Below, piece by piece: positions 59,704-59,779 of a stretch of DNA of 64,000 nucleotides. Origin of the DNA: Escherichia coli. GTDB lineage: Bacteria > Pseudomonadota > Gammaproteobacteria > Enterobacterales > Enterobacteriaceae. The stretch lies in assembly GCF_003991155.1 (NCBI RefSeq), contig NZ_CP031293.1, one strand, 5' to 3'. The position numbers and the translations under genes were made by a program. Position 1 is the stretch's first letter. The number at the start of each line of letters is the position of its first letter. The notes beneath the pieces were generated by a model. The model was not told the origin of the DNA. It saw only the letters and a list, made by a program, of their open reading frames with translations, and ran no database searches.

Positions 59704-59712
59704 GACAATTGT

Positions 59713-59743
59713 GCCGGATACAGCGCAAACGCCTTATCCGGCC
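59713..59743. repeat. REP-like palindrome / gdhA terminator
   Basis: gccggatacagcgcaaacgccttatccggcc. Confidence 0.6.
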
Positions 59744-59779
59744 ATAAAAATCTTCAGTATCAGATGGTTGAAAGAACCT

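Follow-up and report, generated by a model that had tools for sequence, protein, structure and literature searches.

The junction between gdhA and topB in the 64,000-nucleotide stretch of Escherichia coli DNA analyzed here (the window) is very probably a variable site in its unoccupied state. The site lies between these two convergent core genes, and at it other strains carry the gene ynjI or an island encoding an Hsp70-family protein. This empty junction is a common allele of the species and represents ordinary strain and pangenome variation, rather than an oddity of a single strain. ynjI is an accessory gene, and no gene has gone missing from the window through an annotation error.

The gdhA–topB junction in the window and in K-12

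The left conserved flank of the junction is gdhA (NADP-specific glutamate dehydrogenase, 447 aa; 58360..59703, plus strand), which was identified from the open reading frame list and its translation and ends in a TAA codon at 59701–59703. The right conserved flank is topB (DNA topoisomerase III, 651 aa; 59780..61735, minus strand), identified from its translation and from the annotation of strain 2016C-3878, with a stop at 59780 that reads TTA at 59780–59782 on the plus strand. The first-pass annotation had placed 76 bp between the gdhA stop at 59703 and the topB stop at 59780, holding a REP-like palindrome and no open reading frame. The coordinates are confirmed, the palindrome corresponds to a hairpin at 59713–59742, and no gene fits in the spacer (59704..59779), which is overlapped only by trivial open reading frames of 33 aa (GTG start, 59711..59812) and 51 aa (TTG start, minus strand). 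The size of this unoccupied spacer between convergent stop codons is read straight from the coordinates, a deterministic measure that makes a chance statistic unnecessary. Strain 2016C-3878 (NZ_CP029747.1) differs from the window by 1 mismatch in 10.6 kb, and in its RefSeq annotation gdhA adjoins topB with no gene between them, the same gene order as seen in the window. We infer that the 76-bp spacer serves as a shared 3′ untranslated region of gdhA and topB.

In K-12 MG1655, the RefSeq annotation gives the order gdhA (b1761), ynjI (b1762), topB (b1763), which is the gene order that the first-pass annotation assumed. The K-12 ynjI gene lies on the strand opposite to gdhA and encodes a DUF1266 protein of 346 aa that matches PF06889 at 1.8e-25; between gdhA and topB of the window, PF06889 is absent both as an open reading frame and as sequence. 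The two loci are otherwise alike, with the flanking genes ynjE/ynjF/nudG/ynjH/gdhA and topB/selD/ydjA/sppA in the same convergent orientation and a REP beginning approximately 8–10 nt past the gdhA stop in both. By blastn, DNA identity between K-12 and the window is 98.4% in gdhA and 95.6% in topB from position 59805 onward. Homology stops at 59704, one base past the gdhA stop, and restarts at 59805, 25 nt inside the topB 3′ end, leaving an allele-specific segment of about 100 bp (59705..59804) with no alignable K-12 counterpart. Where the window has these ~100 bp, K-12 has 1,308 bp comprising a BIME, ynjI, the ynjI promoter and the last 8 codons of topB. For these comparisons we relied on blastn and MAFFT, as a global alignment with cheap gaps scattered the spacer over the K-12 sequence and was uninformative.

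The K-12 ynjI cassette itself is approximately 1.2 kb long, has a GC content of 41–42% compared with 53–55% in the flanks, and is positioned between the BIME (two REPs) and the topB stop, with ynjI as its sole annotated gene. A repeat scan, for which the K-12 cassette was the only cargo scanned, detected neither terminal repeats, direct or inverted, nor a target-site duplication bounding it, and the cassette shows no sign of transposition. No integrase, tRNA or IS element flanks it either, which sets it apart from a classical integrative genomic island. Regulation of ynjI in K-12 combines activation by BglJ-RcsB with moderate repression by H-NS/StpA (PMC3950696). Such control is typical of AT-rich genes that were acquired.

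The REP element and the topB tail

The spacer contains a single, slightly decayed REP hairpin (59713..59742, plus strand), a palindrome of the form GCCGGATA-CAGCGCAAACGCCT-TATCCGGC with an 8-bp outer stem (GCCGGATA/TATCCGGC). Its full sequence, GCCGGATACAGCGCAAACGCCTTATCCGGC, was the only match to the pattern in the window. The predicted fold has a free energy of −18.7 kcal/mol (z = −5.2), a stability that none of 200 shuffled sequences reached. The element is wholly extragenic, beginning 10 nt past the gdhA stop and ending 37 nt before the topB stop, and it matches 28 of the 34 positions of a REP consensus (6 differ). RAYT, the transposase associated with REPs, recognizes a conserved GTAG/CTAC tetranucleotide beside the stem. 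This tetranucleotide was not found beside the stem of the window REP, where CATA stands in place of the 3′ CTAC (GTAG in the opposite strand), giving GGCC-ATAA where the orthologues have GGCC-TACG. The orthologous copies in three other loci (L005–L007) are canonical, and judged from its sequence the window REP looks like an old, decaying copy. As an imperfect extragenic palindrome in a 3′ untranslated region between convergent genes it resembles known REP/BIME elements, differing from them in being a single unit and not a BIME pair.

A search of Rfam gave a match to naRNA4, a family derived from REP325, at the position of the REP (32.8 bits, E = 7e-4), which is below the gathering score of 59.5 (PMC4550694). 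A second match, to anti-hemB (E = 0.7), was considered noise, and no Rfam family reached its gathering threshold. REPs have been described as local stabilizers of 3′ untranslated regions and partial Rho-dependent terminators, and where they lie between convergent genes, both neighbors tend to be more highly expressed (bioRxiv 10.64898/2026.03.23.713779). By analogy, the window REP probably protects the 3′ ends of the two convergent transcripts and partly terminates both. REP turnover at this site may tune the 3′-end processing of gdhA and topB. A near-canonical REP with 2 mismatches to the same consensus is also present elsewhere in the window, at 39320–39353 on the plus strand.

A second, terminator-like structure lies just beyond the spacer, within the final ~16 codons of topB (59798..59827, plus strand). 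It consists of a hairpin at 59798–59820 (GCCCGCCTCTTCTGATGGCGGGC; −17.5 kcal/mol) followed by seven T residues at 59821–59827. The stem has 7 GC base pairs plus 2 further pairs and runs directly into the U7 tract, which is the structure expected of a Rho-independent terminator, and its GGCGGGCTTTTTTT core does not vary among Escherichia, Citrobacter, Salmonella and Pseudocitrobacter. Based on this resemblance, the hairpin and its U7 tract are probably the intrinsic terminator of gdhA, for which we propose them as a candidate. A simple terminator scan missed this structure, probably because its 9-nt loop exceeds the 3–8 nt limit of the scan, and returned only a weak site at 59826–59849; folding was used instead. 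The corresponding topB-tail hairpin of K-12 is degenerate, at −7.2 kcal/mol compared with −17.5 in the window, and the hairpin is weak in both ynjI-bearing Escherichia loci that were folded (−7.2 and −7.9 kcal/mol). With just two ynjI-positive loci to consider, and an empty Pseudocitrobacter locus whose hairpin is also weak, we make no claim of a correlation between hairpin strength and occupancy of the site.

The hairpin falls within a hypervariable 3′ tail of topB (59780..59920, minus strand), covering approximately the last 45 codons, that co-varies with the junction allele. Megablast alignments of the window to ynjI-positive genomes break from 59705 to about 59918. At the protein level, the last ~35 residues of TopB are markedly different in the window, K-12 (L001, 7000–7140) and the uropathogenic strain UPEC 536 (L004, 9760–9889), whose tail ends in ...GGGAVKKAPNKRVKKAAKPKTDNTDSAN, with those of the window and K-12 both different from it; outside the tail, TopB is 96–97% identical among the three junction alleles. 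The TopB tail thus seems to travel with the neighboring cargo.

Prevalence of the junction alleles in E. coli

To place the window within the species we draw on a sample of 5,426 complete E. coli genomes, about 1,500–1,530 of which (~28%) carry the empty junction. The lower figure derives from contiguous alignment across the window junction, seen in 1,514 genomes, and the upper from a 141-bp allele-specific probe that matched 1,530 genomes, with 1,202 of these matches reaching at least 99% identity. Examples of strains with the empty junction include an O25b:H4-ST131 strain, E2348/69, BEN2908 and an ST648 strain, which we take to belong to phylogroups B2 and F; the closest identifiable relatives of the window lineage are, on the same assumption, B2 and F strains. 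The K-12 segment with ynjI is present in 3,506 of the 5,426 genomes, among them K-12 derivatives, O157:H7 and O103:H2, and in 39 of 39 sampled full-length matches ynjI adjoins topB. The strain-level presence/absence polymorphism that had been proposed from the window is therefore real, and the empty junction could be used as a lineage marker.

The simple two-state form of that proposal did not survive. A third allele, an Hsp70 island, is found in approximately 348 genomes at 95% identity or more, divergent ynjI alleles exist, and the topB tail co-varies with the junction allele. The counts for the empty, ynjI and Hsp70 alleles total ~5,380 of the 5,426 genomes, and fit junction alleles that are nearly mutually exclusive. 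The contents of the site in E. coli comprise nothing, ynjI of the K-12 type, ynjI of a divergent type (protein P0005), and an Hsp70 gene with one or two J-domain/Sel1-repeat genes. Three or more contents between the same core genes in one species is the pattern of a pangenome hotspot. Touchon and colleagues reportedly described, in 2009, hotspots of variable content in the E. coli pangenome that are flanked by core genes, and gdhA–topB resembles these in two respects: the same core-gene pair flanks alternative cargos across strains (none, one of three or more divergent classes of ynjI allele, or Hsp70 with one or two J-domain/Sel1 genes), and inserts of other kinds occupy the same site in other genera. 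Variation at gdhA–topB is routine and is already visible in existing annotations, and our literature search found no paper on the presence/absence polymorphism of ynjI or on the function of DUF1266.

Outgroups and the origin of the empty junction

Outside E. coli, species-representative genomes were scanned with TopB, giving 80 loci, of which about 60 loci from Enterobacteriaceae also contained gdhA. In most of the ~60 other Enterobacteriaceae loci gdhA and topB are directly convergent, with spacers of −4 to 190 bp; these empty outgroups include Salmonella, many Citrobacter, Enterobacter, Kosakonia, Kluyvera, E. albertii and Escherichia sp. E1V33. One species representative labelled E. coli likewise has directly convergent gdhA and topB. 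Of the scanned representative loci, just those of K-12 and Escherichia sp. MOD1-EC7003 (91% aa identity) had ynjI. The window REP, together with an AAAA(T/C)CTTC..ATCA motif 3′ of it, aligns with the empty junctions of two further Escherichia lineages (L005 and L006), E. albertii (L007) and Citrobacter sp. Awk4 (L010). Taken together, the orthology of the REP with those of other empty junctions and the mostly adjacent genes of the outgroups argue that the window junction is an unoccupied site of the ancestral type and not a deletion scar.

The cassette is nonetheless old, as it occupies this site in both MOD1-EC7003 and Pseudocitrobacter faecalis. In the latter species ynjI is present on a contig from a Hadza gut metagenome (L091, 6001–7032), whereas the type strain (L022) has an empty spacer of 147 bp. 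The gdhA and topB flanks of the metagenomic contig are 99% identical to those of the type strain, and this pair therefore displays the same presence/absence polymorphism in a second genus. The P. faecalis ynjI allele has 80% aa identity to K-12 YnjI, a divergence similar to that of the flanks, and lies at exactly the same site. It could be that the E. coli ancestor already carried the ynjI cassette. MAFFT alignment showed a close match of the K-12 BIME and topB tail to empty junctions in Pseudocitrobacter and Citrobacter sp. NCU1, which indicates that ynjI in K-12 sits in a second old spacer haplotype.

The main alternative to an unoccupied allele is a recent deletion of ynjI in this strain or its lineage, for example between REP copies, with the single REP of the window as the scar. 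REPs can mediate rearrangements, a BIME lies next to gdhA in K-12, and ynjI is both the majority state in E. coli and old at the site, yet no trace of either the cassette or the K-12 BIME is left in the window. Moreover, the window REP is of another type, aligning not with that of K-12 but with the empty-junction REPs of E. albertii, E1V33, L005 and Citrobacter; the window topB tail is a haplotype different from the K-12 one; and some 1,500 genomes of several lineages share the same allele. We therefore regard a recent deletion as improbable, and the suggestion of the first-pass annotation that the REP marks the junction has to be given up: the REP belongs to the ancestral spacer itself, with orthologues in the empty junctions of other Escherichia and of Citrobacter.

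Less probable still, by a good margin, is that ynjI persists in this genome at another locus, a possibility against which every search spoke. The 64-kb window contains no YnjI-like sequence (best tblastn E-value 0.18) and no blastn match to the K-12 insert DNA. A chimeric query, made of 2 kb across the window junction and a reverse-complemented ynjI, was searched against the E. coli collection by megablast, and had no second matching place in 2016C-3878 or in any of the 60 best genomes. At the sensitivity of megablast, ynjI is thus absent from the rest of the chromosome in these 60 closest genomes, 2016C-3878 among them, and its absence from the window junction as first noted stands. The near mutual exclusivity of the allele counts and the position of ynjI beside topB in every one of the 39 sampled matches also argue against relocation. 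That misassembly accounts for the short spacer, or that the assumed K-12 gene order was wrong, is scarcely credible given the K-12 annotation, the 48 of the 60 best complete genomes in which the 2-kb junction is 100% identical, and the ~1,500 genomes with the same allele.

An unoccupied allele of a variable site remains our preferred reading, and it suggests a model for how the window junction arose. In this model, the window lineage would either never have acquired the cassette or have returned to the empty allele through homologous recombination in the conserved gdhA and topB flanks, and ynjI would not have been deleted locally. The alleles would move as blocks through recombination mediated by the flanks, and block exchange of this kind would cause the spacer haplotype and the topB tail to travel with the cargo. 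With its multiple alleles, the site behaves like a hotspot of recombination.

The gdhA–topB site is repeatedly used across the Enterobacteriaceae. Unrelated inserts of 1–5.6 kb are present at the topB–gdhA junction, downstream of topB, in other genera (L035, L047, L052, L059, L069 and L033), and Klebsiella spallanzanii carries a set of Hsp70 and J-domain/Sel1 genes downstream of topB. In E. albertii NBRC 107761 (L007, ~6150), topB has an in-frame TAG 27 codons before its usual stop (..PSSGE*KKKASPRKR..), which could either remove the basic tail of the protein or be a sequencing error.

Other cargos and divergent ynjI alleles

The allele of UPEC 536 (L004, 9890–15929) combines an Hsp70-family gene with two J-domain/Sel1-repeat genes over approximately 6 kb. 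It occupies the exact gdhA–topB site, is AT-rich (42% GC) and has its own TopB tail; the 6-kb island is absent from the window. The Hsp70 protein is 43% identical to HscC, and the J-domain/Sel1 proteins resemble DjlB/DjlC and YbeQ/YbeT. A variant of this island with a single J-domain/Sel1 gene is found in strain 1368KP (L085, 3501–7437). At the hscC locus of K-12 (L086), genes for Hsp70, J-domain, Sel1 and DUF1266 proteins are clustered. YnjI had no blastp match to YbeR or YbeU, so that its link to the hscC cluster lies only in the shared Pfam family DUF1266. Relatives of YnjI are very scarce, forming 8 clusters among 5.8 billion proteins, all of them DUF1266. An assignment of YnjI or of the 536-island proteins to a defence system was considered and is unsupported, the PADLOC matches being weak or driven by repeats (PDC-M61B at 5.7e-4; PtuA over the Sel1 repeats).

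A divergent ynjI allele is present at exactly the same site in another E. coli locus (L088, 6001–7032), where it encodes a protein (P0005) with 68% aa identity to K-12 YnjI. The flanks of this locus are 97–100% identical to K-12, the promoter and first ~100 nt of the gene 94–98%, and the body of ynjI 55–75%, with break points near the BIME and ~100 nt into ynjI. From this pattern of identity, the L088 ynjI is a sharp recombination mosaic. This mosaic and the ynjI polymorphism of P. faecalis are both consistent with alleles being exchanged as blocks through the gdhA and topB flanks.

A more speculative possibility, and one that we consider a long shot, is that gdhA–topB may be a cross-genus hotspot whose cargos, a DUF1266 membrane protein on the one hand and an HscC-like Hsp70 with J-domain/Sel1 proteins on the other, belong to a single functional module, with the mosaic ynjI alleles arising from diversifying selection, for example in phage or envelope conflict. 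Were this the case, strains with the empty allele, such as that of the window, would lack that function.

Next to topB in UPEC 536 (L004, ~9950–10077) there is also an element of ~128 bp that occurs at 1–6 places (median 3) with 90–95% identity in over 5,000 E. coli genomes, and which looks like an ERIC/IRU repeat.
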